Source of the DNA: Xanthomonas campestris pv. campestris str. ATCC 33913
GTDB lineage: Bacteria > Pseudomonadota > Gammaproteobacteria > Xanthomonadales > Xanthomonadaceae
Reading direction: 5' to 3'
DNA length: 32,000 bases
Assembly (NCBI RefSeq): GCF_000007145.1
Contig: NC_003902.1
Location: 1,867,436-1,899,435, forward strand
Both the position numbers and the translations under genes were made by a program. This document shows positions 7,067 to 31,460 of this stretch, piece by piece. Positions within the stretch are counted from its first letter, which is position 1; the number at the start of each line of letters is the position of its first letter. The notes under the pieces are model-generated. The model searched no databases, was not told the DNA's origin, and worked only from the letters and a program-made list of their open reading frames with translations.

Positions 7067-7408
7067 ATGCCCAAACCTAAGACACCGGCCACGGTCTATG
7101 GCACGCGTCTGCGCCATGCGCGGATGGCCATGGGCTGGACACAAGCCGAGCTGGCGGAGCGCATTGGGATGGTGGACTCGGTGTCGGGAGCCACGCGCGT
7201 GAGCCGCTACGAGACGGGGCAACATGACCCGGACCCTGCGACGGCTGAGGCACTAGCGAAGGCGTTGAAGCTGCCTGTGGCCTATTTCCACGCAACGTCA
7301 GACGTGCTGGCCGACATCATCTTGATTGTGTCGCGGTTGCCCGTCGCGAAGCAGAAGGAGGCCTTGGAGCGACTCAAGGATCTTGCAGGCAAGCACTCCG
7401 GCGAATAA
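7067..7408 (+). CDS. XRE/Cro-C1 family helix-turn-helix transcriptional regulator
   Basis: YGTRLRHARMAMGWTQAELAERIGM...VSRYETGQHDPDPATAEALAKALKLPVAYF is a canonical XRE HTH. The start is uncertain (7007 or 7067). It is divergent from the envelope operon and upstream of the CHAT-like gene. Confidence 0.75.
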   Translation: MPKPKTPATVYGTRLRHARMAMGWTQAELAERIGMVDSVSGATRVSRYETGQHDPDPATAEALAKALKLPVAYFHATSDVLADIILIVSRLPVAKQKEALERLKDLAGKHSGE

Positions 7409-7568
7409 CGGAGATAGTTGAGCCTGTGATGACCGATGCTTGGCCGAATCTCAGGCAATGAGATAGTCCAAGCCTAGGATTAGGAATAAGGGATATTGCC
7501 GCACCGGACACCAACGGGTGTTCCGACTTGGTGCGAGCACTGCCTCTAACCTGCATCGAGGAAATCCA

Positions 7569-8642: not shown

Positions 8643-8806
8643 AACTACGTCCCAAGCGCAGGGGCGGGTCCCATAAATCCTACTTGGCTCTTCAGAGATG
8701 GATAGCTACCCCAGCCGCTCCGCTCACGACCTCAACAGCGGGCCACGCGGGATGCTACGTTTGTTTAAGAATCCGACGTGCGCGCCGATAGGGACAGTGC
8801 CTGCTG

Positions 8807-8864
8807 ATGCGTGAGGACAAGGACGTGAGGAAGACGCTTATATTTGGAAACGGGCTAGGAATGG
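8807..8864 (+). pseudogene. 5' fragment (19 codons) of the SIR2-like gene, cut off by the IS3-family insertion
   Basis: ATG 8807 is the first start after an in-frame TAG at 8789. It encodes MREDKDVRKTLIFGNGLGM, containing the Gly-rich N-terminal loop expected of SIR2_2/DUF4917-type proteins. The frame rejoins 10069 onward once the IS is removed. Confidence 0.7.
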
Positions 8865-8938
8865 TGTCGACTCCCCGTAAAATTGATCCATCCATAACTA
8901 GAGGTCTCCGGGCACACTAGCCACCAAGGAGACCACCA

Positions 8939-9205
8939 ATGCGCAAGAGCAAGTTCACCGAGAGCCAGATCGTCGCCACGCTGAAGCAGGTCGAGGGCGG
9001 TCGCCAGGTCAAGGATGTCTGTCGCGAGCTGGGCATTTCCGATGCGACGTACTACGTCTGGAAGTCCAAGTACGGCGGCATGGAGGCCGCTGACGTGCAA
9101 CGCCTCCGCGACCTGGAGACTGAGCACAACAAGCTCAAACGTATGTACGCCGATCTCGCGATGGAAAACCATGCATTGAAGGATGTCATCGCAAAAAAGC
9201 TGTAG
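8939..9205 (+). CDS. IS3-family transposase OrfA (HTH)
   Basis: MRKSKFTESQIVATLKQVEGG...YYVWKSKYGGMEAADVQRLRDLETEHNKLKRMYADL is the typical IS3/IS407 OrfA with a leucine zipper. Confidence 0.9.
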   Translation: MRKSKFTESQIVATLKQVEGGRQVKDVCRELGISDATYYVWKSKYGGMEAADVQRLRDLETEHNKLKRMYADLAMENHALKDVIAKKL

Positions 9206-10047
9206 ACCCGGCGCATAAGCGCCCGCTTCTTGCCTGGCTCATCGAGCAGCATGGCTGGAGCGAGCGCCGGGCTTGTGCGGTGGTTGGCGTGGCTCGCTCG
9301 ACAGCACGTTATCGGCGCCGTCCCGATCGGGATGAGGAGGTTATTGCGCTGTTGTCCGAGTTGGCCGAGCGTTTTCCCGAGCGCGGATTTGGAAAGCTTT
9401 TTCAGATCATCCGTCGTCGCGGACATCTGTGGAATCACAAGAGGGTCTGGCGCGTGTACTGCTTGATGAAACTCAATCAACGTCGCCGCAGCAAGCGCCG
9501 GGTACCGACGCGTCATCCACAGCCGCTGGCATGCGGTGATCGACCCAACGCTGGATGGTCGATCGATTTCATGTCTGATGCGCTATGGGATGGTCGACGG
9601 TTCCGCACGTTCAATGTCATCGACGATTTCAGTCGGGAAGCCTTGGCCATCGATGTGGACCTGAATCTTCCGGCTGCCCGCGTCATCCGCACGTTGGAAC
9701 GTATCGCAGCTTGGCGCGGCTATCCGAACAAGCTGCGTTTGGACAATGGCCCGGAATTTGTTGCATTGGCCTTGGCCGAGTGGGCTGAGCGCAAGGGTAT
9801 CGCGTTGGATTTCATCGAGCCGGGGCGTCCGATGCAGAACGGTTTTATCGAACGCTTCAACGGCAGCTACCGGCGTGGCGTATTGGATATGCACATATTC
9901 CGCACGCTGAGCGAGGTCCGCGAACAGACCGAACAGTGGCTGGCCGACTACAACCAACAAATACCGCACGACAGCCTGGGCGGGCTAACGCCCGCCGAGT
10001 TCCGTGAGCAACATCAACCGCAGACCTCTAGCTTTATCTGGCATTGA
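9193..10047 (+). CDS. IS3-family transposase OrfB (DDE integrase core), expressed as an OrfAB fusion by -1 frameshift
   Basis: The slippery heptamer AAAAAAG is at 9193-9199. The -1 frame reads KKAVDPAHKRPLLAWLIEQHGWSERRACAVVG..., continuing into an rve-type core (WSIDFMSD..., NGPEF..., ESFNG-like IERFNGSYR). Confidence 0.85.
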   Translation, partial: KKAVDPAHKRPLLAWLIEQHGWSERRACAVVGVARSTARYRRRPDRDEEVIALLSELAERFPERGFGKLFQIIRRRGHLWNHKRVWRVYCLMKLNQRRRSKRRVPTRHPQPLACGDRPNAGWSIDFMSDALWDGRRFRTFNVIDDFSREALAIDVDLNLPAARVIRTLERIAAWRGYPNKLRLDNGPEFVALALAEWAERKGIALDFIEPGRPMQNGFIERFNGSYRRGVLDMHIFRTLSEVREQTEQWLADYNQQIPHDSLGGLTPAEFREQHQPQTSSFIWH

Positions 10048-10994
10048 ATTGCGGGGAGTCGACATTGGCTCTTGACCCAACCCTGTTCTCGCTCGACGAG
10101 GCGATCGGACGGGCATGGGAAGGCGAAGGGATCTTTGATGCAGAGACGCGGGCCTTGGTTCGCTGCTGCCTAATGGATGATGGCGATACAGAGCGACCTC
10201 ACGGAGAGGGCGACCTAGACGCGCTTCAACTGGTGGTCTCGTCATGTGACTTCTTGGATCGGATGAGTCAAGGCGGTGCACATTGGCTCAGCGACCATGG
10301 GCAAAGATTTCCTGCCGCAGTGCGCAAGTTTCTTTATCAGACGGCACTCCAGTTCCACCGGAGGGATGTGCTCCTTCCGCTAGAGTTCGCTCAGCCGCTG
10401 GCCGCCTTTCTTCATGAGACCCACTCGCACGTCGCGACCCTTAACTACGACAACCTGCTGTATCAGCGAATGATTGAGGCGCATGTCCTCAGCGGATACG
10501 ACGGCGCGTTGGTTGACGGTATGCTGGGACGTGGCTTCTCGCCGGAGAACCTGGAGCGGAAATGGGGGCGAACTTTCGGCTACTACCTTCATCTACATGG
10601 TTCCCCACTGTTCATCGACCAGGACGACATCGTCCGAAAGTTGCAGCAGGGAGAGCTTGGTGGAGACGATGATGTAGTTGGCTCCCACATCGTGCTGACT
10701 CATGTCAAACACAAGCCCACGGTCATCGCCGCATCAGCGCTCTTGCAGAGCTATTGGCAGCACCTGGAGTCGGCCTTGGAGGAGTCCAACGAGGTCATAT
10801 TGTTTGGCTATTCCGGACTGGATACCCATCTCAATGAGCTGTTGGAGCGACGGTCACCGGAACGCATCCGCGTGGTGGAATGGGATGGTTCCGGTGAACA
10901 GGCAAAAAGAGAGGTCTTTTGGAAAAAAGCGCTAGGCAAGGAAACAGCTGTCACGCGAATGGAGAGCATCCTGGCGTTCGCCGATTGGGGCTGA
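10044..10994 (+). pseudogene. 3' portion of the SIR2-like (SIR2_2/DUF4917-type) NADase-family gene, separated from its start by the IS
   Basis: Motifs are HVATLNYDNLLYQ (catalytic Asn region), YYLHLHGSPLF (catalytic His region) and VILFGYSGLD. The first 7 codons of the tracked ORF are IS-derived. Native sequence starts at about 10066. Confidence 0.7.
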
Positions 10995-11138
10995 GAGGTA
11001 TGTCCAAAGTCGGCGTGAATGCCTAGGCGGCGGTGGCGCTGGCCGCGCGCTGCGAGCCGGAGGGTTGCAACCTCTTGCAAATCTAGCCTTCCCTCATAGT
11101 GATTTTCTTGGATCAAATTGTGGGTCCACATCCACTAG

Positions 11139-12297
11139 GGATGGTCTGATCAACGGCGTCGGAGGATGAGCCCAACTACATCGGCCAGGCTGACGGCGCT
11201 CAGATCCTCGATTTTTTTGCCGTTTCCGGCGCGTTTGCAGGGTGTTGCCTGCGTTACAGGCGCACGCTCCCCATAGCAGGCAATAACTGCTTTCGCTTCA
11301 TCCACAGGTTTGACAGCGCAAACAGCGTCAGCACCTGCGCGGTGTTCTTCGCCAGGCCGCGATAGCGGACCTTGGTGTAACCGAACTGGCGCTTGATCAC
11401 CCGGAACGGATGCTCCACCTTCGCACGCACGCTGGCCTTGAAGTGTTCCCAGCGCTGTTCCCGAGCACGCTCCCGCTTGTTGCCGATGGCTTGAAGCACC
11501 GAACGCTTGGCAGCAATGAAAAATGCAGCCTCGCAGTCCTGCAGTTCTTCGCGCTTATCCGCACCGGTGTAGCCGCTGTCGCCAAACACGCTGTCTTCTT
11601 TGCCATGCAGCAATGCGTGCGTCACCGTGACATCGGCGACGTTGGCGGCTGTGCAATGGACGTGGTGCACCAACCCGGAAAATTCATCCACGCCGATGTG
11701 CGCCTTCATCCCGAAATACCACTGATTGCCCTTCTTGGTCTGATGCATCTCAGGGTCGCGCGCATGGTCGGCGTTCTTGGTCGAACTGGGCGCCGCGATC
11801 AGCGTCGCATCGACGATCGTGCCCGACCGCAGGCTCTGGCCCTTGCGCGCCAGATGCGCGTTGACCGCTTCCAGCATCCGCGCGGCAAGGCCATGGGTCT
11901 CCAGCAGGCGGCGAAAGTTGAGAATCGTGGTCTCGTCCGGAACGTTGTCCAAGCCACCGAGCTGGGCAAAGCGCCGCAAGGTCGGGATCTCGTGCAGTGC
12001 TTCTTCCATCGCCGGATCGCTCAACGCATACCACTGCTGCAGCAGATGAATCCGCAACATCGTCGCCAGTGCGTACGGCTGCCGACCTGGCCGCCCCGAG
12101 ACCGGATAGTGCGGCGCGACCAGCCCGAGCAGTTGCTGCCACGGGACGACCTGCTCCATCTCGGCCAGAAAGATCTCCCGGCGCGTCTGCTTGCGCTTGC
12201 CCAGGCCCTCAGCGTCACCGAACGTCAGTTGCATGGATCACCCCTCAACATCAGGCGGGTAGTGTCGCGTATCTGTGGTGCGTTGTTCAGAGGTTCC
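11139..12297 (-). mobile_element. IS5-family insertion sequence, 1159 bp, with a CTAG target-site duplication
   Basis: Imperfect terminal IRs are GGATGGTCTGATCAACG (11139-) and the complement of CGTTGTTCAGAGGTTCC (-12297). A perfect 4-bp direct repeat CTAG lies at 11135-11138 and 12298-12301. Confidence 0.85.
11254..12234 (-). CDS. IS5-family DDE transposase
   Basis: The 326-aa protein has the typical IS5-group sequence: MQLTFGDAEGLGKRKQTRREIFLAEMEQVVPW...DATLIAAPSSTKN...GMKAHIGVD...GDSGYTG...VEHPFRVIKRQFGY. Confidence 0.9.
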   Translation of the reverse strand: MQLTFGDAEGLGKRKQTRREIFLAEMEQVVPWQQLLGLVAPHYPVSGRPGRQPYALATMLRIHLLQQWYALSDPAMEEALHEIPTLRRFAQLGGLDNVPDETTILNFRRLLETHGLAARMLEAVNAHLARKGQSLRSGTIVDATLIAAPSSTKNADHARDPEMHQTKKGNQWYFGMKAHIGVDEFSGLVHHVHCTAANVADVTVTHALLHGKEDSVFGDSGYTGADKREELQDCEAAFFIAAKRSVLQAIGNKRERAREQRWEHFKASVRAKVEHPFRVIKRQFGYTKVRYRGLAKNTAQVLTLFALSNLWMKRKQLLPAMGSVRL

Positions 12298-13048
12298 CTA
12301 GGTCAAATTTGATAATTTTAGCTTTAGGGAATAACCGTCGCGCAATTTCTCTAATCTCTTTCTGCAAGACGGGGATTGACTCATCGCTTTGATAGACGTG
12401 ATACCGCATAGTGGTAACGAGATTTACCGCGGATTCCAGGACTTGCTCACCCAGATTTGCTTTCAGATCTTTGTAACTGTAAGCGGCCCCTCTTGCCAGG
12501 GTGGAAGCTGCAAATGCAGGCTGAAACTCATCTAAGCAGTGCTTTGCTCTCAAGCGAGTAGCGACAAGTGTTTGGTCGAATCGTAATTGCTCAATGTGAA
12601 TTTTAAAAATGAGGTTCGGATCTGATGAATCGATTAGGAAATCCAAATCATCGATTTTTTGAGAAAGCCCTATGGTATCCGGAGGAACAAAGGCGTTCAT
12701 TCCGAGGGCGCAGTCCACGTCTTTTTCGAACTTGTCTAGTTCTTTTTTCATGGTTCTTATTTCGTTGTGCTGAGCGCCTAAAACCAGTAGCGACCGATTA
12801 ATTGCCGAAATTCGTCGCTGAACCTCCTTTTCCAACTCGCGACGTTCACCTAGTCGGAAGGCAAACTGCGCGCCGAAAAACGTGCTTAGAAGCGCAAGGA
12901 GCGCTAGGGCGAGGTCTTTTGATTGGATTTCCCCTGCCCATGCGAGAGTTGCTATGCAACCGGAGGCAGCCACGACGGCAAGGACATAGATCCAAGGTGC
13001 AAGTCGTGACTGTCTATTCATTTCTCTATTTTCTGGGGATGGGCGCAT
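12287..13048 (-). CDS. Low-GC membrane protein of unknown function (two N-terminal TM helices plus a helical domain); 3' end altered by IS5
   Basis: TM segments are LAPWIYVLAVVAASGCIATLAWA and LALALLALLSTFFGAQFAF. The last 3 codons and the stop lie in the IS5 terminus. Without the IS the frame continues 13 codons to a TGA at 11094-11096. The likely start is ATG 13021. Confidence 0.55.
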   Translation of the reverse strand: MRPSPENREMNRQSRLAPWIYVLAVVAASGCIATLAWAGEIQSKDLALALLALLSTFFGAQFAFRLGERRELEKEVQRRISAINRSLLVLGAQHNEIRTMKKELDKFEKDVDCALGMNAFVPPDTIGLSQKIDDLDFLIDSSDPNLIFKIHIEQLRFDQTLVATRLRAKHCLDEFQPAFAASTLARGAAYSYKDLKANLGEQVLESAVNLVTTMRYHVYQSDESIPVLQKEIREIARRLFPKAKIIKFDLGNL

Positions 13049-13871: not shown

Positions 13872-14711
13872 TCACCTGTAACGGGCAGCCCCATGCGTGC
13901 GCACAAGCACCTGGTCGCCCATAAAGCGTGGCAAGGTCAGCCCATCACAGGAGATCTTATTCAGCGATTTTTTTAGGCTACTCATCCGACAACTTGGGTA
14001 AAAGAAGCACGTAAAAGCCGGGAAGTGGCGCTCTGACGCTCGGGCCAACTCCCTTTTATCAGCCCAGCTGATGTCAGCATCCATCAAGCGCTCCCCGAAG
14101 GTCTGGCGTAGCGCTGAGAATCCGCTTTTTTTGATGCCATGAGAGCGCAAGTATCGAGCGAACTTGCTCCTAAGCCATGCGGCTGTGTCGGCTGTTCGCT
14201 CCCTCTGGCTGGTGCGAAAGAGTTCCCGCCTGTCCTTGCTTTTGATGGCTGCGACGTAGTCCGGAAACCCGGCATCAAGCAACACTTTCGGCACCGGAAT
14301 TGACCCTGTGCTATGCCTCTGTCGAGTTCGGTATTTGGAGGCAGTGGCGCTTTCCGATTCCGGCGCAGCTCGATTCTTGAGCACGATGCACATCAGCCCG
14401 GCGCGCTCGATGATGTCGTCGATAGACAGCGCAACCGTCTCCGACGCCCGGACACCCATGTAGAGTCCGAGCAAGGGTGCCCAAAAAAGCAGCGGTTCGT
14501 TGGCTGCCCATTGATCGTAGGCCGGAGATGCGAAAATCTTCGCTAGGTCGCTCTCAGCAAGACGCTGCGGGCGTTGGTGGTGAGATTCGGCATTCATAAC
14601 AAATGCGGTGCTTGCGGTGCTGCGAAGTGTTCGAAAGATTACTTTGCCAGGTAGGCGTTGATTGAGGAGAGAGGACAGATGTTCGGCAGTAGGCGTGCTG
14701 GTGATGCTCAT
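13872..14711 (-). pseudogene. Degenerate tyrosine-recombinase paralog (catalytic domain only, active-site motifs eroded)
   Basis: LLGLYMGVRASETVALSIDDI and IPVPKVLLDAGFPDYV align with the intact integrase. HAFRHT is replaced by FSALRQT, the GHS box and C-terminal Tyr region have diverged, and the N-terminal ~200 aa domain is missing. Confidence 0.5.
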
Positions 14712-14892
14712 GATTGAATTCCGAAAGGGTGGAGAAGGAAGGGTGGAGAAGGGCGTTGAGGTTTGAGCCGGCTGCGTCAGTCGTTTGGCCTCCGTCTTCA
14801 GTTGCCCAACAACGGGGGTCGAAGCAGGCGACATAGCGGTGGCGACAGCACCGCAACAAGGTTGCAAAACCGGACATCAGGGCAGGGCACGG

Positions 14893-16284
14893 TCAGGGGT
14901 AAAACTTGCTCGGGTCCGCCAAACACTCCGAAAACTGGCCACGCTCATACTTGGGCAACTCGACCGGCGGCTTGTATTTCGCCAGAATTCTGATCTGCGT
15001 GGCCCGGGCAAGCTTTGGCTTCTTGTGGAAATACGCGTCGTGCAAGACGGGCACGTTCTTCCGCAGCGAGTGGCCGGTAATGAGGGCGATGTCTTGGTCG
15101 GACACGTTCTTGTGGTGAAGCTCGGTGGCAAGCGTGTGGCGGAAGGCGTGAGCGCCGATCCCCTTTCCGAAGCCCAAGGTCTTCATGTAGCTGCTGAACT
15201 GGTTCACCGCGCCTTGGCTGTAGCGCGCATTGGTCTCTCCAGTCTCCCGGTTCACGCCCGCAGACAGATGCGGAAAGAGTCTGGGATGGCCAGTAGCCTT
15301 GATGTCCTCAATGAAATCCAGGAAACCAGCATCCAGCAATGGTTTGGGGATGGGCAGGGTGCGAACCGCTGCTTTGCCTTTTAGGCTTTGACGGCTCCTG
15401 TCTCGATCCTTATGCCTGAGATCGGCGTCGACCGTTTTTTGGATGCGGATGCACCACACCTTGGCCTCCTCAACGATGTCGGCCACCTTCAGCTGAGCGA
15501 GCTCGTTGATGCGCGCGCCCGTGTAGAGCGAGATCATGGGGAGCCACCACCGGTGGGGATACTTCTTGGCCCAAGCCGGGAACGTCTTGGGTGAAAAGAT
15601 GCGCTGAAGCTCTTCCTCGTCGAACAAGCGCTCGGGCTTGCTCGTGTCTACGACCAAGTCCTTCTTGATCTCAGCGAAAGCATCCATGGGCGACATGGGA
15701 ATCGCTTTCGCCTTTACCAGCTTGCTGAAGAAGGTCACCAGGAACCGCCGATGCTTCTCCAGCGTGGCGGGAGCCGGGGGCGCCACGCCGAGTTCCTTGC
15801 CAAGGGCGACGGCTTGTTCGAACGTGTAAGCCTGATATTTGGGATCGGACAGCAGAAGCGGTGGTGCCCAACGCATCAGGTCCCACAGCCTGTAGATGTG
15901 AGCATGGTCGATGCGCGAGACAGGAACGTCACCGCAGGCAATCCGCAAGAGCTTCAGCGACCGAGCCGTGTCTTCGACGGTCTCTTTGGCCAGGCCGCAA
16001 CGGTCGCGGTGCCCGAGGTAATCCGAGATCTCGACCGAGAGCAAGCGCGCCGGCGAGCCGAGGGGCAGGGGCTCGGGGTAGAGCGTTCGGTTCTTGCTGA
16101 GGCGCACCCGCCGAGAGCGCTCATCCGCGCGGTCAAAGAGTTCTAGTGCGTGGATCGCGGCTTCGCGACCCGTGATGTTGATTTCGGTCGCTCGGATGTT
16201 GCCGACGTGCGCGCCCTTGATTTGCAGGAGACCGAAGGGGGAGGTGATGTAATCGCGAAGCTGTTGCTGGACGATAGAGGACAT
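14893..16284 (-). CDS. int: Tyrosine-type site-specific integrase
   Basis: Catalytic motifs are YTGARINELAQLKVADI (Arg), HAFRHTLATEL (His-x-x-Arg), LITGHS and a C-terminal Tyr region. ATG 16284 has a GGAAG Shine-Dalgarno. The longer ORF to 16341 would translate a hairpin. Confidence 0.85.
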   Translation of the reverse strand: MSSIVQQQLRDYITSPFGLLQIKGAHVGNIRATEINITGREAAIHALELFDRADERSRRVRLSKNRTLYPEPLPLGSPARLLSVEISDYLGHRDRCGLAKETVEDTARSLKLLRIACGDVPVSRIDHAHIYRLWDLMRWAPPLLLSDPKYQAYTFEQAVALGKELGVAPPAPATLEKHRRFLVTFFSKLVKAKAIPMSPMDAFAEIKKDLVVDTSKPERLFDEEELQRIFSPKTFPAWAKKYPHRWWLPMISLYTGARINELAQLKVADIVEEAKVWCIRIQKTVDADLRHKDRDRSRQSLKGKAAVRTLPIPKPLLDAGFLDFIEDIKATGHPRLFPHLSAGVNRETGETNARYSQGAVNQFSSYMKTLGFGKGIGAHAFRHTLATELHHKNVSDQDIALITGHSLRKNVPVLHDAYFHKKPKLARATQIRILAKYKPPVELPKYERGQFSECLADPSKFYP

Positions 16285-16290
16285 TGCTTG

Positions 16291-16311
16291 CTTCCATTGT
16301 TTCAATGGAAG
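16291..16311 (-). promoter_or_regulatory. Perfect 9-bp inverted repeat (CTTCCATTG-TTT-CAATGGAAG) covering the integrase Shine-Dalgarno
   Basis: I read it directly from the sequence. The proximal arm contains the GGAAG SD, 7 nt before ATG 16284. Confidence 0.4.
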
Positions 16312-16643
16312 TAGTGATAATCCAGCCCGGAAATTCGTCAATCAAAAAGAGCAATTTTTTACTTTTCCTGAAGCAAACTCTACCGTAAAGGCCTAGCCTG
16401 AAATTCCGCCAAAATTATTATGTCTGGTTTAAGTGCGGTGGTCCTATATAATTCAATGGTTTAGCGGCGCGTCGGGGAATGATTTCGAGTGGTTTGCCCT
16501 GTCATTATTGTACTGTTTAATGCAAATAGGCTAACTAAATAGGCCTGCATGTTAGTTTTTAAGGTGTACCGTTCCTAAATGACTTGATCAAATGTTAGTA
16601 TTATCTAGGTAGATAAAGCAGCCAAAAACGGGAGTTAACTAAC

Positions 16644-20267: not shown

Positions 20268-20747
20268 ATGAAGCGCACCCAAGACCGAGCAGTCCAATAT
20301 CAACTTGAGATGGACGAGGAGGGGATTCTCCTCGCTGCCGCGACCATCTTGGAACAGCGCCTTCAACGCCAAGGCCGCATCCACAGCCCCGACCAAGCCG
20401 GCGACTACCTGGTTGCCCGCTGCGCTCACCTGCCGCACGAAGTCTTCGGGGTCGTCTTCCTCGACACCAAGCATCACATCCTCGCAACCGAACATCTCTT
20501 CAGCGGCACCATCGACGGGTGCGATGTCCACCCGCGAGTCGTAGCAAAGCGTGCCCTGGACCTCAACGCCGTCGCCGTCATCCTCTTCCACAACCACCCG
20601 AGCGGGAATCCAGAGCCCAGCGAAGCCGACCGCAAAGTCACCGAGCGCCTGAAGCAGGCGCTGGCGCTGCTCGACATCCGCGTCCTCGACCACCTGGTCA
20701 TCGGCGGTCGGCAGCACACCAGCCTGGCCGCAAGGGGGTGGGTATAG
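20268..20747 (+). CDS. radC: RadC-like JAB/MPN domain protein
   Basis: The JAMM motif HNHPSGNPEPSEADRKVTERL and the overall RadC pattern (FGVVFLDTKHHILA...LFSGTIDG) are present. Confidence 0.85.
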   Translation: MKRTQDRAVQYQLEMDEEGILLAAATILEQRLQRQGRIHSPDQAGDYLVARCAHLPHEVFGVVFLDTKHHILATEHLFSGTIDGCDVHPRVVAKRALDLNAVAVILFHNHPSGNPEPSEADRKVTERLKQALALLDIRVLDHLVIGGRQHTSLAARGWV

Positions 20748-20840
20748 CCCCTCCATTGGCTTATGGGTTGGGTCGGCACAGCGGCCGAGTTAAGCTCTTT
20801 CTGTCAGCTGAGACCACAGCGCACGGACGGGATAAAACGC

Positions 20841-21491
20841 ATGTCATCAACAACGCCCAATCAGCCGACGGCCGGGAGCTTCTACATGTTTGAAGCGGAC
20901 ATGGAGAGCAACAGGCAGCCCTGTGGGGTGAGGTTCGACAATGTCCGCCACCTGCTGTCCCCTCCGAGGTTGATCCTGCGGCCGGAGGAGGGAGGATTTC
21001 CCACGCTCCGCGAAACACCGCAGCTGACCTACGACCCCAAAACAGGTCCAGCCCCGCGCGATCTAGAGCCGGGATTCAGCGGTTACTGGTTGGTTTCAGA
21101 GCGACTCTACGATGCCATGGTTTTGGTGGATTCCGACGCCTTTGCCTTCGCGGAGGTGGATTACCGCTTGGCCGATGGAACCAAAGGTCCGCGCCACTTT
21201 TTGTGCGACATTGTTCGCGAGCTTGATGCCTTGGGCGAAGTTGCCTCGAGGCTTCAAATCGAAATAGACGACGACTATGTCAATGGCAAGTTCTACTCGG
21301 TGGGAGGAGGGGCCAGCTTGGCCTTTAGACAGGAAGTCGTGGGTCAAGCCCACGTATTCCTTACGCCCTTTAGCTCATTCGTGATTTGCGACCGGGCTTT
21401 CAAAGACGCGGTCCATGACGCGGGGATTCCTGATGATGCGGGTGAAAGCGGCATCTCTTTTATCGACGCATCGGGTATCGAGCTGCCCTGA
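20841..21491 (+). CDS. Imm11/DUF1629-like immunity-family protein (orphan copy)
   Basis: It is a paralog of 24012-24653 (MSSTTPNQPTAGSFYMFEAD vs METTTTNQPKKGEFFHLQPD; GFSGYWLVSERL; AFAFAEVDYRLADGTKGP; HVF...CDRAFKDAVHDAGI). The pattern matches my recollection of Imm11 proteins. Confidence 0.6.
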   Translation: MSSTTPNQPTAGSFYMFEADMESNRQPCGVRFDNVRHLLSPPRLILRPEEGGFPTLRETPQLTYDPKTGPAPRDLEPGFSGYWLVSERLYDAMVLVDSDAFAFAEVDYRLADGTKGPRHFLCDIVRELDALGEVASRLQIEIDDDYVNGKFYSVGGGASLAFRQEVVGQAHVFLTPFSSFVICDRAFKDAVHDAGIPDDAGESGISFIDASGIELP

Positions 21492-22084: not shown

Positions 22085-22444
22085 TCAACCGACGATGTCG
22101 CCGCGCTTTAGCTTGTTGTCCCATTCGTCGTTGAAGGTTTTCCAGTTCTTCTCCAGCCAACTTCTAACGTTAGCGTGGCTGCGGACGTTAGAGGGGAGCT
22201 TTATTTTAATGAGCCATTCCGTCTTTTTTCCGCTGTTTTTCTGCTTTAGGTTGTGCTGCTCGGCAAAACGATTAATGAAGTCCAAAACTTCGTAACCCTC
22301 GGACCGACTGAGTAGTGTGCTGTCGGGGGCGCCAACGACGTGAGGATTGTCGCCTTCCAACGCTTTCCAGGAATATTCGTGTTGAAGATCGGTTTTCTTC
22401 AGCAAAGGCGCCTTTGAAGTATTTTCTTTTTCTTTATCTGCCAT
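22085..22444 (-). CDS. Low-GC hypothetical protein
   Basis: A 119-aa ORF with normal composition, convergent with 21549-22022. No recognisable motif. Confidence 0.45.
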   Translation of the reverse strand: MADKEKENTSKAPLLKKTDLQHEYSWKALEGDNPHVVGAPDSTLLSRSEGYEVLDFINRFAEQHNLKQKNSGKKTEWLIKIKLPSNVRSHANVRSWLEKNWKTFNDEWDNKLKRGDIVG

Positions 22445-24011: not shown

Positions 24012-24653
24012 ATGGAAACAACGACGACCAATCAGCCTAAGAAAGGGGAGTTCTTCCACCTGCAGCCGGACGTTCGGCGAGGTGGCAAAGGCCATGGGGT
24101 TGTCTTTGAGAACCGAGACGCTCTCCTAACTCCACCAAGGCTAATTCTGAAGCCCAAGGACGGCGGATTTCCCGCTTTGCGCGAGATCCCACGCCTGGTC
24201 TACCACCCCAGTGAAGGCGTGCTTCCCGAAGATCTGGAAGGGGGATTCAGCGGCTACTGGCTGGTGTCAGAGCGCCTGCGTCGAGTGATGGAGACGGTAG
24301 ATCCTGCGGCGTTCGCGTTTGCCGATACCGACTATCGCTTGGCCGATGGCTCGAAGGGGCCAAACGTCTACCTGTGCGATGTGGTCCGCACGGTGGACGC
24401 GCTGGATGAAGATACTTCTCACCTAGATATTAAGGTGAGTGAGGAATACGAAGACGGGAAATATTACAGCTTGGCGGGGGGCTCGCGACTGGCCTTCAAA
24501 CGCGACGTGCTCGGGACGGCGCATGTGTTCAGGCTGCCATTTCACGGTGGGGTCTTTTGTGACCGGGTGTTCAAAGATGCTGTTAAAGCAGCCGGGATAG
24601 GCGCGCAAGGTAAATCGGATGGCCTCTGGTTCTACGACGTGGTCAACCGATAA
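24012..24653 (+). CDS. Imm11/DUF1629-like immunity-family protein, immediately upstream of the AHH-type toxin gene
   Basis: It is a paralog of 20841-21491. Its stop lies 36 nt before the toxin gene start. It has no signal peptide. Confidence 0.65.
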   Translation: METTTTNQPKKGEFFHLQPDVRRGGKGHGVVFENRDALLTPPRLILKPKDGGFPALREIPRLVYHPSEGVLPEDLEGGFSGYWLVSERLRRVMETVDPAAFAFADTDYRLADGSKGPNVYLCDVVRTVDALDEDTSHLDIKVSEEYEDGKYYSLAGGSRLAFKRDVLGTAHVFRLPFHGGVFCDRVFKDAVKAAGIGAQGKSDGLWFYDVVNR

Positions 24654-24689
24654 GGCGAGCCACAAAGTCGCAAGGAAGGAGCCTGATCC

Positions 24690-27600
24690 ATGCCGAACTA
24701 CCGCACGCTTTTTCAGGACCACCACAGCATCGAGCAGCAGACGCTGAAGAACAGCGAGTTGCTTGATGAGTTGCAACGGGCGGGGAAGTTTGACATCCAC
24801 GCACCGGAAAACCGACTGTTCTTGCCGGCCAACCCCGCGTTCGCTCAAACGATGGGCATCACGCCACATAGCGGCGGCCCTCTTAGCGCATACCAGTATG
24901 GGCTGCTTGATCACCTTGAAGATCTTTACGCGTCCCGAGATGGACAAGCCATGTTGGAGGGCGACCCAGCGGCAATGGACCGCGTTGTCCAGCGCGTCGA
25001 GCACCTACGCGATACCGTCAAAGTAGGCCTAATCAACGGCGACTTGAACACCAATACGCCGGTTGGTTTAACCCCTCCGCAGACCAACCAGAAGGTTCAA
25101 GACTTTTTCCGCGATATCCCGACCTATCAGCAGACCCATGCCCAACAGATTGAAGCTCTGAAAGGATTCACTGGAGTGGATCACGGCTGGGGTGCCGTCG
25201 CGCACTCTGAGTCGCGCATCGTCGCCACGCTCAACCAAATCCAGGTTAGCAATAGCGCAATTATCCGGGGCGGGGATATCCAGCTTCAGCGCAGCGGGCT
25301 GTCCCTTGCCCTTTCCAATGCCCACCACGATGGGCGCGTGGTTTTTTCAGAGCAAGGCATCCTCAAGGTCGAGCAGACCCTGGGCGAGGAGGCCGCACAT
25401 AACCTGCGCGTCCCCCGAGGCCAGAGGGGTGGCGTATCCATGGAACTGCTGCTGGGCGAAGCATCGGCCAGCAGCTTGGTGCGTTCGGGCGGCTTGCTGG
25501 CCACCGGCGCCGATGCGGTGTTGACCGCCCGCCGTTCGGCCGAGTTGCTGGAACAAGGCAATGCCACCGCCGCCCAGTCCGAAGTCGCCCATGCATTGGC
25601 CCGCAACGTCGGCGGTTGGGCCGGTGGCGCGTCCACGGCAGCAGCGCTGGGTGGTAGCGGCTTTGTGCCTGCGGCCTTGGTTGTGGGCGACGCGCTGTTG
25701 ATGAGCAAGGCGTTCGACAAAGGCGCCGATTTGCTGGACAACCGCGCCATCTACCACCAGACCGACAAAGCGGGCGTGGAGTGGCAGTTCAACGGTCGCA
25801 ACTGGCAGCGCGAAGCCGCCATCGACCTCGCCCAGGATGGCCGCCGCACGTCGGGCGAGCAGCCCGTGGTCGCCAGCTATGAAAAATCGCAGGAACTGGG
25901 CGCTCTGGCCAACGCCAAAGCGGTGGAACTGGCGCTGGGCAAGGTCCCGACGCCCCAGGACCCGTTCAACCTCCCTGCACGGGCAAGCGATCAGGTGGGA
26001 TTGGACAACCAGAATTGGCAGCGCAATCCCGAGCGTCAGACCTGGGAGCGCCAAGTCAGGACCACGGCCTCTGGAACCGATGAGATTGGCAGCTATGCCC
26101 TCCAACTCGCACCCCCGGAACGCGTGCAGCAGCTCAATCAAGAGGCGCTGGCACGCATCGAGACCAACGTCGCCACCGGGCGCGAGGCCATTGCGGCCGC
26201 ATACATCGAGAACCATGCCGCGCAGCGAGCCCAGGCCTACGGAGTCGAGGTGCCGGCAGCCGTCCAAGCCGCCCGGGCCAAGTCAGGCGCGGTGCTGGGG
26301 TCGGACGCTCAGCTTTACCAGCGCACCGAGTCAGGCCAGTGGGCGGGCAAGGATGGCGTCGCCAGCGGCAACCTGGCGGTAGAGCTGGAACTGACCGACC
26401 AGATGCGGCAGCCCTCGTTGGAGCGCTCCCAGGAAGCCTTGACCGCGATCCAGGCGCTTCCCGCGCCCACAGCTACGCAGATGGAGCACAACGAGCTGCT
26501 GCACCGTTACCGGGCTGCAGGCGTTGATTTGAACGTCAACCCGCAGACCCAGCAGGCCGTGGAGCTGGCCTCGCAGCGGACCAGGGACGCCAGCGGCATC
26601 GCCGGACCGACCATGCAGCAACTCCAGCGCAACGAGTCCGGGCAATACGGCTATGACAGCCCCATCGTCCACCTCCAGCGCGGCAGCGATGGCGTCGCTC
26701 GGGTGGTGGCCGTCACCAGCAGCGACGACATCCGTCAGGCGCTGAATGAGGCGCAAGGCAATCGGCGAGAATTGCCGCCCCTTGCGCGAGCGCCCGAGGC
26801 GACGGGGGAGACAGACACCTCGACCTCCGACTCGTCCAATCCGCAGCAGGTGCTCTACATCCAGGCACGCATGCAGGCTTCTGTCGCCGCGCAGGCGCGA
26901 CAAGAACGCGAACAGCAAGATCGTCTCGCGCAAGAGCAGCATGCCGCGCAGGTGCGCGAGCACCTCCATCAGGCACAGCCTGAGCGCGAAGATCAGTCGC
27001 AGAGCGAGCAGGCAGTCCAGGCGCACGCGATGCTGGAAGGTCAACGCCAAGCGGAGCAGCAACGCGAACAGGAAGACCACCAGCAACAGGAGCGTCAGGC
27101 ACACACCAACCAGCAACGCGAGCTACAGGAGCGTGAGGGTAGGGAAGTCCAGCAACGACAGGCGCAGGAACGCCAATCCGAGGACAACCAGCAGCGGGAG
27201 CAGCAAGACCGCCAGGCTCAAGAAACCCGGCAAGTTGAGGTGCAGGAAGCTCAGGCTCAGCAAACACATGATCAGCAGCAACAAACTCAAGGACTCGAAC
27301 CGCGGCAGGCCTCGCCGCAACTGGACACTCAGCCGCACGCTCCAGATGCTGCGTTGGTTCAACAAACGCCACGACCCGAGTCGCAGCAGGAAGACGCACG
27401 CCAGCAGCCACAGATGCGGAACCAACAGGCACACGAACATCTGGCTCCTGACGCACCTGACCCACTGAAGCAAACGCACAGTCCAGGCGACGCGCGGCCG
27501 CATCAAGCACAAGAAGCGGAACGCGCGCTGGAAATGTCGGCGGTGGAGAGTCGCGCCGCCGCGCGCCTTCAAGTGTCTTCATCCGAGGGCCCGGAATCCG

Positions 27601-28706
27601 GTAACCAATTTTCGCAAGGCGCGGAGGCCGATGCGGTGCCTCCAGCGCTGCCTCCCAGCGTGCAAACGCAGCAAGCGGAGATGGAGCAAGCGTCGGTCCG
27701 TCAGCAAGACGTGGCCCGTAAGCAGGAGGCAGAGCAGGTTCGCGTGATGGCCCAAACAGCGCCTGCGACAGCAGAACCGTTGATTGCGTCGCAGCCCCCT
27801 GCGCCTACCACTCTTGAGCGAGCAGCTGAGGCACGGCAGGCGAGTCCTTCAGACGTCTCTCCCATCGACCATGGGGCGGCTGTGCTGCCCGCAATAAATC
27901 TCGCGCAAGCACACGGGCAATCGCTGGGAGGCAGCGCAGAGAATCGTTTTCCCACGGAGCCAGCAGACGCGGAAAGCCAGCAGGCCCAATCGACCCCGGC
28001 GCAGGACCGCAGCGCCGCAGATCCGGGCGGTGCCCTGTTCCTGGAAGAGACCATGCGCTCGTTGCGCCAACTGCAACAGGAGATTGAGGCGGCGGATCGG
28101 GAAGACGAACGTTTCCATCAAGAATGGAAGGAGTATCGCGAGCGCGGAGAACCCTATCCCTTCGTTCGCGACGGCGCGCGGGACCAGGAGAGTGGGAGCA
28201 TTGATGCATTCAGCGCGCACCAACCAAGTCGCCGCTCTCCCAGCGAAGCTGCTGAGCAAACCGATGCCTTCCCATCTTTAGCTCAGCGCTTCGCCGGTCC
28301 AGGAGGAGGCGATGCCCCAAACGATTCGTCGAAAGATGAACGGAAATCGATCACGGGCGATCCCGACGTGGATGAGGTGCTTTATGCGCTCGACAGCAAG
28401 AACGAACTGGCGATCGAGCAAGCGCTGAACCGGGTGGCCAACAGCGCAGCGACGCAGGCGCTGTTGAAAAAAGGCAACGATTTCCTGGAGGCACAGGCCC
28501 AGCAGGAAGCCCAGGAGCACGTCGCCACGCGCCAGGCGCTGGGAATGGATGTCTCAGCGGAGATCAACACCAGCCGCGGGCCGGTCATGGTGATGACGCT
28601 GCCAGAGTTTGCCAAGGGGCCGATGCAGAGCGGTCCCCAAGGGGATGGCGGTGGAGGTGGAGACGGCGGAGGAGGAGGGGGCGGTGGTGGTGGAGGCGGT
28701 GGTTAG
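24690..28706 (+). CDS. 1338-aa multidomain protein: N-terminal AHH-type HNH/EndoVII-fold nuclease motif, Gly-zipper-like hydrophobic segment, Q/E-rich low-complexity region, helical C-terminal module and poly-Gly tail
   Basis: A strong AAGGAAGGAG Shine-Dalgarno is present. The N-terminus reads FQDHHSIEQQ...AGKFDIHAPENRLFLP...PHSGGPLSAY. The tail is GDGGGGGDGGGGGGGGGGGGG*. The long antisense ORFs are shadows of this frame. Confidence 0.75.
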   Translation: MPNYRTLFQDHHSIEQQTLKNSELLDELQRAGKFDIHAPENRLFLPANPAFAQTMGITPHSGGPLSAYQYGLLDHLEDLYASRDGQAMLEGDPAAMDRVVQRVEHLRDTVKVGLINGDLNTNTPVGLTPPQTNQKVQDFFRDIPTYQQTHAQQIEALKGFTGVDHGWGAVAHSESRIVATLNQIQVSNSAIIRGGDIQLQRSGLSLALSNAHHDGRVVFSEQGILKVEQTLGEEAAHNLRVPRGQRGGVSMELLLGEASASSLVRSGGLLATGADAVLTARRSAELLEQGNATAAQSEVAHALARNVGGWAGGASTAAALGGSGFVPAALVVGDALLMSKAFDKGADLLDNRAIYHQTDKAGVEWQFNGRNWQREAAIDLAQDGRRTSGEQPVVASYEKSQELGALANAKAVELALGKVPTPQDPFNLPARASDQVGLDNQNWQRNPERQTWERQVRTTASGTDEIGSYALQLAPPERVQQLNQEALARIETNVATGREAIAAAYIENHAAQRAQAYGVEVPAAVQAARAKSGAVLGSDAQLYQRTESGQWAGKDGVASGNLAVELELTDQMRQPSLERSQEALTAIQALPAPTATQMEHNELLHRYRAAGVDLNVNPQTQQAVELASQRTRDASGIAGPTMQQLQRNESGQYGYDSPIVHLQRGSDGVARVVAVTSSDDIRQALNEAQGNRRELPPLARAPEATGETDTSTSDSSNPQQVLYIQARMQASVAAQARQEREQQDRLAQEQHAAQVREHLHQAQPEREDQSQSEQAVQAHAMLEGQRQAEQQREQEDHQQQERQAHTNQQRELQEREGREVQQRQAQERQSEDNQQREQQDRQAQETRQVEVQEAQAQQTHDQQQQTQGLEPRQASPQLDTQPHAPDAALVQQTPRPESQQEDARQQPQMRNQQAHEHLAPDAPDPLKQTHSPGDARPHQAQEAERALEMSAVESRAAARLQVSSSEGPESGNQFSQGAEADAVPPALPPSVQTQQAEMEQASVRQQDVARKQEAEQVRVMAQTAPATAEPLIASQPPAPTTLERAAEARQASPSDVSPIDHGAAVLPAINLAQAHGQSLGGSAENRFPTEPADAESQQAQSTPAQDRSAADPGGALFLEETMRSLRQLQQEIEAADREDERFHQEWKEYRERGEPYPFVRDGARDQESGSIDAFSAHQPSRRSPSEAAEQTDAFPSLAQRFAGPGGGDAPNDSSKDERKSITGDPDVDEVLYALDSKNELAIEQALNRVANSAATQALLKKGNDFLEAQAQQEAQEHVATRQALGMDVSAEINTSRGPVMVMTLPEFAKGPMQSGPQGDGGGGGDGGGGGGGGGGGGG

Positions 28707-28745
28707 TCAAAATCGCTTCCGTGACCAGCCGAGTTAGGAAACCTC

Positions 28746-29393
28746 ATGGACAAGCAAGACGCTGCCGCAATGGCGGAAATGATGGCCACGTTGAATGCAT
28801 CGAACGCCTCGTTGCAGGAGACGGTCAAAGTGCTAACGACGCTGGTGGCATCCATGCAGCAGCGCGAACAACGGTTGCGCGATGTGGTCACCGAGCAACT
28901 CCAGGTGCTCCAGAACGCGGTGGGCAGCGCTGATTCCAAGGTCAATCGGGTGCTGGAGAACGCACTGCCGAGGCTAACGCAGCTGACCAATCAAGCGTTG
29001 ACGCAGACGCTGGAGCCAGCCGCCAAGCGGTTCAACAAAGAGATGGCCCTTGCGGACGAGACGTTGCAGCAAGCCACTCGGCGTTACACGCAGGCCCAGC
29101 AATCCTTGGAAACGCGGATCACGCGGCGCATGGGTATGGCGTCCGCCACGATGCTCGTGGCGGGCGTCTTAGGGCTGAGTGCGGTGGCTTACTCGGTCGG
29201 CATCATCAACGAGAAGCGAACCGAACTCGCACAGCTTCGTGCCTCCATCGACTACATGGACCGCGTCTCGCGCGCTGACCTAGCTCCCTGTGGCGAAGGC
29301 CGGCTCTGCGCCACGCTTGAGAAGAACGGGCCGCGTTACGGCAACCAGAGGCAATACAGAGCGGTCAGCCTGCGCACTGCGCCGGCCGCGTGA
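28746..29393 (+). CDS. Coiled-coil protein with a single C-proximal TM helix
   Basis: An AGGAAA Shine-Dalgarno sits 5 nt upstream. A Q/L-rich helical N-terminal 130 aa precedes the TM segment MGMASATMLVAGVLGLSAVAYSVGII. The gene starts 39 nt after the 1338-aa gene. Confidence 0.6.
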   Translation: MDKQDAAAMAEMMATLNASNASLQETVKVLTTLVASMQQREQRLRDVVTEQLQVLQNAVGSADSKVNRVLENALPRLTQLTNQALTQTLEPAAKRFNKEMALADETLQQATRRYTQAQQSLETRITRRMGMASATMLVAGVLGLSAVAYSVGIINEKRTELAQLRASIDYMDRVSRADLAPCGEGRLCATLEKNGPRYGNQRQYRAVSLRTAPAA

Positions 29394-30327: not shown

Positions 30328-30594
30328 ATGAAGAAGAGTCGTTTCAGCACCGAGCAGATCATCGGATTCATCAAGCAGGCGGATGCCGGGATGGCGGTGG
30401 CTGAGCTGTGCCGCCAGCACGGTTTCAGCCCGGCCAGCTTCTACCAGTGGCGGGCCAAGTACGGCGGCATGGAGGCCGAAGACGCGAAGCGCCTGAAGGA
30501 GCTGGAGCAGGAGAACAACCGCCTGAAGCGGTTGCTGGCCGAGGCGCACCTGGACATCGAGGCGCTGAAGGTCGGGTTCGGGGTAAAACGCTAG
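30328..30594 (+). CDS. IS3-family transposase OrfA
   Basis: [76 protein letters not shown] is typical of IS407-group OrfA. Confidence 0.9.
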
Positions 30595-31460
30595 CCCCGC
30601 AACGCAAGCGCGAGGCAATCCGGCGCATGTGCGAGCTGACGTCGATCAGCGAGCGCCGGGCTTGTCGCCTTGCGGGGATCTCCCGCGATGCTTTCCGCCA
30701 CGCGCCGACACCCACGCCGGCGACGCAAACCCTGTCGGCCAGACTGGTGGAACTGGCGCAGGCGCGTCGCCGCTTCGGCTATCGCCGCCTGCACGACCTG
30801 CTGCGCCCGGAGTTTCCGCAGGTGAACCATAAGAAGATCTACCGTCTGTACCGCGAGGCGAAGCTGAGCGTGCGCTGGCGCAAGAAGGCCAAGTTCCCGG
30901 CGGCACAGCGGCAGCCGTTACGGCCAGCGCGGCATCCCAACGAGGTAATCAGCATGGACTTCGTCTTTGATCAGTTGGCCAGTGGCCGCCGCATCAAATG
31001 CCTGACCGTCGCCGACGACTTCACCCATGAATGCGTGGACATCGCGGTGGACCATGGCATCAGCGGGGCTTACGTGATGCGTGTGCTGGAGCAGATCGCC
31101 TGCTTCCGCGGCTATCCCCGCGCGGTGCGCACGGACAACGGCCCGGAGTTCACCAGCCGCGCCTTCATCGCTTGGGCACAGCAGCGTGGCATCGAACACA
31201 TCCTGATCGAACCCGGCAAACCCATGCAGAACGGCTACATCGAGAGCTTCAACGGCAAGTTCCGCGACGAATGTCTCAACGAACACTGGTTCACGTCGCT
31301 GATCCAGGCTCGCGAGGTCATCGCCGATTGGCGGCGTGACTTCAACGAGGTACGTCCGCACAGCAGCTGTGGTCGCATCCCGCCAGCGCAGTTTGCCTCC
31401 AACCACCGAGCACAAACCGGCAACAACGCAGTACCCTTCAACCCCGGGCTTTATCAGTAA
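30408..31460 (+). CDS. IS3-family transposase OrfB frame (DDE core), presumably expressed as an OrfAB -1 frameshift fusion
   Basis: The -1 frame overlaps OrfA. The rve-type core reads ISMDFVFD...TDNGPEFTS...[15 protein letters not shown] found no canonical A AAA AAG heptamer in the overlap. Confidence 0.8.

Follow-up and report, generated by a model that had tools for sequence, protein, structure and literature searches.

The type IV secretion system (T4SS) with which Xanthomonadales kill bacteria is currently defined by one rule, namely that the XVIPCD of an effector binds VirD4, and the catalogues of its effectors have been built on XVIPCD searches. Among the described systems closest to the locus reported here, XAC3266, which has an N-terminal AHH domain, and XAC3267, which lacks a lipoprotein signal, constitute a published X-Tfe/X-Tfi pair (Souza et al. 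2015; PMC6536674). In S. maltophilia, DNase activity and T4SS-linked killing have been experimentally demonstrated for the T4SS DNase TfdA (locus 20845), which carries an xHH motif at residues 9-11, an uncharacterised centre of ~683 amino acids and an XVIPCD; its H10A and H11A mutants lose toxicity and the neighbouring immunity protein 20840 binds TfdA (PMC11253643). Homologues of T4SS effectors that lack the XVIPCD have been listed as 'atypical T4E' candidates, and XAC2506, a protein of 1309 amino acids with 66% identity to XAC3266, is among them (Shen et al. 2023, PMC10989847 Table S1). Here we describe a locus in a stretch of 32,000 nucleotides of Xanthomonas campestris pv. campestris DNA (the window), in which an Imm11 immunity gene is followed by the gene of a 1338-amino-acid toxin with a new conserved C-terminal tail, and by a gene for a small membrane protein, dn. 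We estimate at about 55% the probability that positions 24012-29393 of the window are a three-gene antibacterial cassette whose tail and dn form an export or targeting device replacing XVIPCD-VirD4 recognition.

The AHH/Imm11/X-Tfe part of this organization is already known. Full-text literature searches on XVIPCD effectors, XAC3266 and XAC2505-2507 returned no description of the replacement domain or of the linked membrane gene.

Organization of the locus and family of the toxin

A sequence-only reading of the window had paired an Imm11-like gene with a 1338-amino-acid open reading frame (ORF) 36 nucleotides further on, and both ORFs were read as it described them. The features of the locus are the following.

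24012..24653, + strand: Imm11/DUF1629 immunity gene, 213 amino acids, ATG start (ORF list; Pfam PF07791)
24690..28706, + strand: toxin gene, 1338 amino acids, ATG start, whole ORF including the stop (ORF list; homologues)
24690..25379, + strand: toxin residues 1-230, variable toxin module with an AHH/HNH-type core at about residues 8-90
25380..26759, + strand: toxin residues 231-690, conserved central region, common to proteins of the XVIPCD type and of the new-tail type
25611..25703, + strand: toxin residues 308-338, glycine-zipper-like hydrophobic stretch within the central region
26760..28019, + strand: toxin residues 691-1110, Q/E/A-rich low-complexity linker
28029..28145, + strand: toxin residues ~1114-1152, conserved long helix before the tail module
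28341..28640, + strand: toxin residues 1218-1317, new C-terminal 'TGDPD' module at the position of the XVIPCD
28641..28703, + strand: toxin residues 1318-1338, Gly/Asp tail (GDGGGGGDGGGGGGGGGGGGG)
28746..29393, + strand: dn gene, single-pass membrane protein of 215 amino acids (predicted topology)

Two items go beyond the sequence-only reading: dn (28746-29393) is part of the unit, and the window holds a second, orphan Imm11 paralogue (20763..21491, + strand; Pfam Imm11, E=2.5e-68).

The Imm11 and toxin ORFs are real genes rather than chance ones, since the Imm11 Pfam match runs end to end, residues 1-698 of the toxin have 604 database homologues, and a relative over the full length of the toxin, at 37% identity, exists in a betaproteobacterium (Paracidovorax cattleyae). 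Nearly all the homologues come from Xanthomonas and Stenotrophomonas, measure ~860 or ~1100 amino acids and are named 'XVIPCD domain-containing' or 'AHH domain-containing'. A precomputed match to PF20410, the XVIPCD family, is found in ~90 of 120 homologues among the matches listed, and is absent from the closest relatives of the toxin. Residues 1-689 are 73% identical to P0017, an X. citri XVIPCD protein of 862 amino acids. Beyond residue ~690 the match is to a 1352-amino-acid protein of ~200-kb Xanthomonas plasmids, with ~95% identity in the tail, and the whole toxin is 72% identical, end to end, to the 1352-amino-acid protein of Xanthomonas plasmid NZ_CP103843.1. One protein backbone occurs with either the XVIPCD or the new tail as its C-terminus. 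Judged by homology, the toxin body belongs to the XAC3266/XAC3267 family of Xanthomonadales T4SS effectors, and the placing of the toxin motif at the N-terminus, which had been called unusual, is already published as the normal X-Tfe layout for this very pair.

The central region (residues 231-690) is 56-91% identical across the family, the one of the window being closest to plasmid-type proteins (85-91%). It gave no Pfam or PDB match, and a stretch homologous to it is present in X. translucens Tle1-like toxins. The Gly-zipper-like stretch previously quoted from the toxin, GGWAGGASTAAALGGSGFVPAALVVGDALLM, was located at residues 308-338; over 19 residues it reaches a hydropathy of 1.6, more than any other part of the protein and borderline for a membrane helix, and it is conserved in the X. 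citri homologue. The Q/E-rich tract quoted with it corresponds to the linker at residues ~691-1110, composed of 20% Q, 11% E and 16% A and 66-87% identical among the closest relatives, and the quoted strings DEVLYALDSKNELAIEQALNRVANSAATQALLKKGNDFLEAQAQQEAQEH...PVMVMTL lie near the C-terminus.

A portable C-terminal module distinct from the XVIPCD

The tail module (RKSITGDPDVD...SRGPVMVMTLP; RKSITGDPDVDEVLYALDSKNELAIEQAL...SRGPVMVMTLPEFAKGP) is conserved, helical and ~100 amino acids long, the tail region having 30 invariant columns in our alignment A1. The helix that precedes it, EETMRSLRQLQQEIE...RGEPYPF, is conserved in the distant members of the same alignment and corresponds to helix 2-40 of the AlphaFold2 C-terminal model, with a predicted local distance difference test (pLDDT) score of 72-88. 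The module has the consensus R-K-S-I-T-G-D-P-D-V-D-x-L-Y-A-L-D-S-K-N...A-I-E-Q-A-L, followed by a Gln/Ala-rich helix; its long form continues with S-R-G-P-V-M-V-M-T-L-P and the Gly/Asp tail, and a short form has a Gln-rich stretch and GPSLSR at its end. The Gly/Asp tail is written with mixed GGN codons, counts from ~9 to >40 Gly in distant homologues and continues out of frame in L022 and P0121, where it is read as a valine run. The tail module contains no hydrophobic segment.

The sequence-only reading had tentatively assigned an XVIPCD to this C-terminus, and three comparisons led to the rejection of that assignment. The last 216 residues of the toxin had no Pfam match at E<=10, PF20410 included. 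When the tail profile was aligned with hhalign to a profile of 79 XVIPCDs, the probability was 5.8% over 8 columns, which set SRGPVMVM against ELGPRMTM. Finally, residues 1113-1327 were modelled with AlphaFold2 after removal of the last 11 Gly of the tail (mean pLDDT 64). The model begins with a long helix and a disordered stretch, continues with three helices (pLDDT ~90) and closes with a weak hairpin followed by a disordered tail, and a Foldseek search with it against the PDB found nothing below E=5, in a library whose date range includes the XVIPCD entries 7mu9 and 7r6s. The proposed X-Tfe-like organization was therefore retained for the toxin body and the upstream immunity gene, but not for the C-terminus.

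When 1.84 billion representative proteins were searched exhaustively with a profile, 40 matches to the tail module were recovered. The tail ends an X. campestris phospholipase, upstream of which lie two ankyrin genes, as well as an NlpC/P60 protein and a lysozyme of the VgrG3-like kind that also contains a peptidoglycan-binding (PG-binding) domain. It also ends X. translucens proteins of 1481-1500 amino acids, whose N-terminus matches a neighbouring paralogue with a Tle1-like/DUF2235 Pfam match, and proteins of 665-755 and of ~305 amino acids with N-terminal domains that were not recognised. The tail-bearing toxins each have their own candidate immunity gene, one of the enzymes being paired with an LprI-like periplasmic candidate immunity protein. 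Several of the domain types joined to the tail (AHH, NLPC_P60, DUF2235, PG-binding, lipases, lysozyme-like) also appear in the X-Tfe domain list (PMC6536674). The tail is a portable module found on unrelated toxins.

A membrane protein gene linked to the tail

The dn gene starts 39 nucleotides past the toxin stop, with AGGA upstream. Its product begins with MDKQDAAAMAEMM and has no signal peptide or lipobox, its only hydrophobic stretch being residues 129-155, where the transmembrane segment is placed (Kyte-Doolittle score 2.13). Residues ~1-125 are predicted to be helical and may be read as a coiled coil, while the C-terminal ~60 amino acids carry an invariant Cys pair (APCGEGRLCA). Because basic residues precede the membrane helix and the Cys pair follows it, the topology would be N-in, C-out. 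The product of dn is thus predicted to be an inner-membrane protein whose coiled coil would lie in the cytoplasm and whose small end in the periplasm would be disulfide-bonded.

Homologues of dn number 139, nearly all from Xanthomonas. Among the tail-bearing genes with downstream sequence on record, 26 of 27 were followed by a dn homologue, versus none of 20 XVIPCD genes (Fisher test, 2e-12, for loci that are not independent). The distance between toxin and dn is usually 43-142 nucleotides and reaches 1-2 kb in L045, L052 and L053. This linkage spans five N-terminal toxin types. By tblastn, 20 Xanthomonas plasmids matched the tail and 20 matched dn, apparently the same records, and on the IMG/VR contigs with room upstream a tail-bearing toxin precedes dn in six cases out of six. 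Furthermore, the identities of tail and dn co-vary (Mantel r=0.92, 29 loci).

Searches with dn against Pfam (with the single sequence and with 42 members), NCBIfam, PHROGs, PADLOC and the PDB (by sequence and by profile) gave coiled-coil noise only, such as Exonuc_VII_L, phasin and ZorA tails, and no match was found among deposited phage genomes. The UniRef label 'Relaxation protein', attached to some dn homologues, could be traced to no relaxosome family. Several candidates were rejected. An entry-exclusion protein is not supported by any family match, and tail-bearing toxins are followed by dn also at loci without a T4SS close by; similarly, the 'EexN-like' gene previously reported near the toxin was not recovered, the scanned ORFs of the window having no entry-exclusion match in Pfam, NCBIfam, PHROGs or PADLOC. 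XAC2611, a trans-intoxication protection factor, is a periplasmic DUF4189 protein unrelated to dn, and the X. perforans bacteriocin BcnA is an unrelated RHS/YD-repeat protein. A promoter and terminator scan gave one promoter-like site, on the minus strand, versus 0.8 expected by chance, and no + strand terminator-like site in either of the gaps between Imm11, toxin and dn.

The N-terminal module and its immunity gene

The three motifs from which an AHH nuclease had been proposed are found in the toxin as quoted, FQDHHSIEQQ at residues 8-17, FDIHAPENRLFLP at residues 34-46 and PHSGGPLSAY at residues 59-68. The proposal holds in part, since the motif residues are conserved and AHH is the top Pfam match, but the score of the window protein is below the curated Pfam threshold of 22.3 bits. 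Its N-terminus matches AHH (PF14412) with 18.9-19.5 bits (E ~0.001-0.002), over profile positions 17-59 of 111 only. AHH was also the top Pfam match for 10 of 10 family N-termini, four of which exceeded the threshold with 25.3-25.9 bits over profile positions 14-97. The catalytic-type residues of the toxin are D10-H11-H12, N41 (ENRLFLP) and H60 (PHSGGP), and the motifs DHH, N..LP and H.GGP..Y are conserved over 63 non-redundant family N-termini; variants of the catalytic motif are KHH in L036 (S. maltophilia) and SHH in L054 (Paracidovorax cattleyae). We infer that residues 1-230 form an AHH/HNH-type module with putative DNase activity. Compared with relatives, these residues are 39-99% identical and vary independently of the rest of the protein, the N-terminus of the window being 88-93% identical to the chromosomal XVIPCD-type proteins P0005/P0006.

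The identification of the upstream gene as Imm11 was borne out by a full-length match to PF07791 (E=3.5e-73, 245.5 bits), in which residues 13-211 align with profile positions 1-193 of 194. As had also been noted, this protein has no signal peptide: a 19-residue Kyte-Doolittle scan found a hydrophobic N-terminal segment in neither Imm11, whose maximum score is 0.79, nor the toxin. Of its counterparts, the Imm11 encoded next to P0006, where the toxin N-terminus is 88-92% identical to that of the window, shares 85% identity with the window Imm11, and the plasmid Imm11, whose toxin has an N-terminus 39% identical to that of the window, shares 57%. Over 33 loci, Imm11 identity tracks that of toxin residues 1-230 (Mantel r=0.93, p=5e-4) versus r=0.13 (p=0.10) for the central region. 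This genetic evidence of pairing indicates that Imm11 is cognate to the N-terminal module of the adjacent toxin.

Displaced remnants made of Imm11 and a toxin N-terminus were found upstream of the intact toxin gene in L006, L009, L010 and L038, and in L036 the upstream remnant is an N-terminal toxin fragment only. They are the counterpart of the displaced C-terminal toxin tips of classical polymorphic-toxin loci. That the N-terminal module and Imm11 would be swapped together, as a cassette on a conserved carrier, is well supported by these sequence comparisons. For strains of X. citri pv. citri, a published list of recombination regions includes XAC2505-XAC2506 (PMC4690215).

The orphan Imm11 is 67% identical to the plasmid-type Imm11 and 54% to the cognate one, and its alignment with homologues places the probable true start near 20841. 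No toxin fragment follows it in the window. It might guard against the plasmid-borne variant of the toxin. Between both Imm11 genes lies an ORF of 119 amino acids (22085-22444, minus strand) that matches phage protein families without assigned function (phrog_33929, E=1.4e-16).

Genomic context

The window is a mosaic accessory region and is probably chromosomal; a protein encoded by a 5.0-Mb Xanthomonas contig has the same sequence as its dn (100% identity). Upstream of the cassette are two adjacent integrase-like genes (13872-16341, minus strand) and a RadC/JAB gene (20268-20747). The same integrase-RadC-Imm11-toxin island occurs on an X. cerealis chromosome with the XVIPCD version of the toxin and no dn. 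No tRNA gene was found in the window that would mark an island boundary.

A three-gene conflict system of the ABC-3C type occupies 1515-5217 (minus strand) and consists of a DUF3732 protein of 659 amino acids (E=4.6e-59), a Middle Component 3 (E=3.4e-37) and, as effector, a protein that has a C-terminal domain 7 and a weak Cap4-nuclease match. Within 7007-8642, a helix-turn-helix regulator adjoins a CHAT-domain protein (E=1.9e-6), and a SIR2-like ORF (10044-10994; 23.7 bits, slightly under the cutoff) abuts an IS3 element at ~8874-10064. The region 7007-10994 looks like a defence island split by insertion sequences. An IS5-family element at 11135-12301 is 99% identical to the IS1646 copies of X. 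campestris plasmids, and an IS3-family element at 30328-31460 has the usual two overlapping ORFs.

Elsewhere, the trio of genes was found on ~200-kb Xanthomonas plasmids that have an F-type transfer system and a MOBH relaxase. In Paracidovorax cattleyae (L054) it directly follows trbL-virB8-cagX-trbI-DUF2274 on an element that ends in a tyrosine integrase; this element is a Trb-type integrative and conjugative element (ICE) of a betaproteobacterium, and its toxin is the one that is 37% identical over the full length. In X. campestris (L049/L050) the trio directly adjoins the P2-like prophage genes for methylase, Com, portal and terminase. The flank beside these genes of P2-like phages is a cargo hotspot. 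Fourteen predicted prophage contigs (IMG/VR loci L055-L068) carry dn, in many cases within ~1 kb of the contig end, and the trio also occurs in plain chromosomal surroundings. A plasmid-encoded Icm/Dot route was rejected, the carrier plasmids examined having the F-type system and MOBH relaxase, and no single conjugation system fits because the cassette also sits by other element types.

Proposed mechanism and alternative explanations

In the mechanism that we propose, residues 1-230 of the toxin would act as an AHH/HNH-type DNase, which the cytoplasmic Imm11 would neutralise in the producer. The central region with its glycine zipper plausibly helps the nuclease across the inner membrane of the target, and the Q/E-rich linker would be disordered. 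In the leading version, dn would be a dedicated adaptor, binding the tail at the inner membrane so as to pass the toxin to a type IV secretion machine; in a second version, tail and dn would make up a self-contained release route. The adaptor version is preferred because the carrier and the toxin repertoire are those of T4SS effectors, because the signal is C-terminal with a disordered end, and because the genomes with the cassette also hold XVIPCD effectors, as in Xanthomonas sp. Leaf148, where the two kinds of gene are together on one contig (L011 and L024). The tail hints at a type IV signal by its C-terminal position, its unstructured end and a GP.M.M motif in common with the extreme end of XVIPCD proteins. 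The self-contained release route is favoured by the spread of the cassette across element types and into a betaproteobacterium.

If the adaptor route is correct, it would represent a second mode of substrate recognition for a T4SS, and an autonomous route would mean a new, small system for export or release. In both cases the cassette is compact, mobile and modular, with toxin and antidote at one end and the delivery tail and its partner at the other, and is potentially useful for delivering chosen cargo. The same toxin bodies occur with another conserved tail and a private membrane partner, so that catalogues based on the XVIPCD overlook these weapons, which are relevant to strain competition in plant-pathogenic Xanthomonas, where cassettes ride ~200-kb plasmids. 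More tentatively, the 'TGDPD' module, the Gly/Asp tail and the membrane protein could together be an undescribed two-part portable delivery device, alternative to XVIPCD-VirD4 recognition, by which mobile elements could carry ready weapons between Xanthomonas strains and into Betaproteobacteria, dn serving either as a new kind of adaptor for a T4SS or as the centre of a release route that works autonomously.

Several observations weigh against a cassette of this kind. The AHH score of the window protein (19.5 bits) is under the Pfam threshold (22.3 bits), and XAC2506 is among four XAC3266 homologues reported to be non-toxic in E. coli (PMC10989847). The kinship with TfdA was taken from the description in the corresponding paper and not from sequence, and the S. 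maltophilia locus L036 has KHH, not GHH. The role proposed for dn is deduced from linkage; the loci that were counted are phylogenetically non-independent, six of them having been fetched via dn itself, one tail-bearing gene (L003) has no dn nearby, and both linkage and co-variation of tail and dn would also be expected from block inheritance. The AlphaFold model of dn, made of long helices, is poor (pLDDT 44.6). Finally, there is no secretion-system gene among the window ORFs scanned and none consistently adjoins the cassette elsewhere, so that no particular machine is implicated.

Among the other explanations, the one that survives best, although we consider it unlikely, is a non-secreted module serving the mobile element in post-segregational killing, defence or abortive infection, in which Imm11 would restrain the nuclease and dn would be a membrane sensor or regulator. 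This corresponds to the 'atypical T4E' idea, in which a defence function was suggested for XVIPCD-less effector homologues (Shen et al. 2023, PMC10989847). The cassette is on or beside mobile elements in most of the contexts examined (plasmids, ICE, integrase islands and P2-like prophage borders), and the surrounding window, with its ABC-3C, CHAT and SIR2-like genes, is a defence island, which would agree with such a function. However, tail and dn also accompany enzymes that act in the periplasm (lysozyme-like with PG-binding domain, NlpC/P60, phospholipases), which make sense as exported weapons and not as cytoplasmic suicide modules. Conservation of the ~460-amino-acid central region and of the tail down to 37% overall identity would be unexpected for a simple toxin-antitoxin pair, and no PADLOC model matched beyond coiled-coil noise.

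Polymorphic toxins may hold more than one toxin domain, and the tail module could itself be a second toxic activity with dn as its membrane immunity protein, as for pore-forming colicins. The inner-membrane location predicted for dn, its position directly after the tail module and its co-variation with the tail are in line with this possibility. We find it improbable nonetheless, since the tail has no hydrophobic segment and is predicted to form three soluble helices with a disordered Gly/Asp end, since a conserved tail with variable N-terminal domains is the pattern of a trafficking domain rather than of a toxin, and since a candidate immunity gene is already present for every tail-bearing toxin.

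Less probable still is that the protein is a canonical X-Tfe whose tail is a divergent XVIPCD binding the all-alpha domain of VirD4 directly, dn being irrelevant. Residues 1-689 do belong to the X-Tfe family, the C-terminal position and the Gln-rich helix before a GP.M.M-like motif recall the XVIPCD tail, and Xanthomonas genomes with the toxin gene, such as that of Leaf148, also hold XVIPCD effectors. But the Pfam and hhalign comparisons with the XVIPCD failed, the predicted three helices and weak hairpin had no PDB match, and the strict linkage with dn would be left unexplained. The last alternative, a decaying or chimeric pseudogene in which a broken X-Tfe has lost its XVIPCD to low-complexity expansion and with it any function, would account for a Q/E-rich tract and poly-Gly tail that are length-variable and frameshift-prone and for the many partial database entries of the toxin family, but these entries result from draft contigs, many of which stop inside or shortly past the toxin gene, and the intact 1338-amino-acid ORF, the same architecture in >20 loci and, with 37% identity, in a betaproteobacterium, the 30 invariant tail-region columns and the mixed Gly codons make it very improbable.

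Comparison with known systems

Classical polymorphic toxins have a variable C-terminal toxin and a downstream immunity gene, whereas here the variable part is residues 1-230 and immunity lies upstream. Colicin and S-pyocin operons contain a toxin, an immunity and a release gene, the latter coding for a lysis lipoprotein with signal peptide and lipobox. The window locus resembles them as a mobile three-gene cassette in which a large modular nuclease comes with a small immunity protein of the cytoplasm and an equally small protein of the envelope. It differs from colicins in that the toxin module is N-terminal, the order being reversed, in that dn is a coiled-coil, single-pass protein and not a lysis lipoprotein, and in that no receptor-binding domain is recognisable.

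The likeness to TfdA, by published description only, lies in the xHH motif at the extreme N-terminus (H10/H11 in TfdA, H11/H12 in the window), the large centre and the adjacent immunity gene; TfdA differs by a GHH rather than a DHH motif and by its XVIPCD end. As an XVIPCD-effector homologue without an XVIPCD, the window toxin also fits the description of the 'atypical T4E', and size and identity are the only grounds on which XAC2506 is taken as its probable counterpart in X. citri. The study of these candidates described no replacement C-terminal domain or linked membrane gene (Shen et al. 2023, PMC10989847).

With XAC3266/XAC3267, the locus shares the N-terminal AHH-type module, the ~460-amino-acid centre and the upstream cytoplasmic immunity gene without a lipoprotein signal. 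Of the hallmarks of an X-Tfe, it shows homology in the toxin body and an adjacent X-Tfi, but no XVIPCD. XAC3266-type proteins measure ~860 amino acids and end in an XVIPCD (PF20410), whereas the window toxin has a ~420-amino-acid Q/E-rich linker and another C-terminal module with a Gly/Asp tail, and a downstream membrane-protein gene is present that XVIPCD loci do not have. Like the XVIPCD, the tail module is C-terminal, comprises ~100-120 amino acids followed by a low-complexity tail, is fused to an overlapping set of antibacterial enzymes and has GP.M.M near its end. The published XVIPCD fold is two helices then three strands, whereas the model of the window tail has three helices and a weak hairpin, and the end of the long form is Gly/Asp-rich where that of the XVIPCD is Gln-rich. 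Unlike the XVIPCD, the tail described here is accompanied by a neighbour gene of its own, which it requires or at any rate retains.

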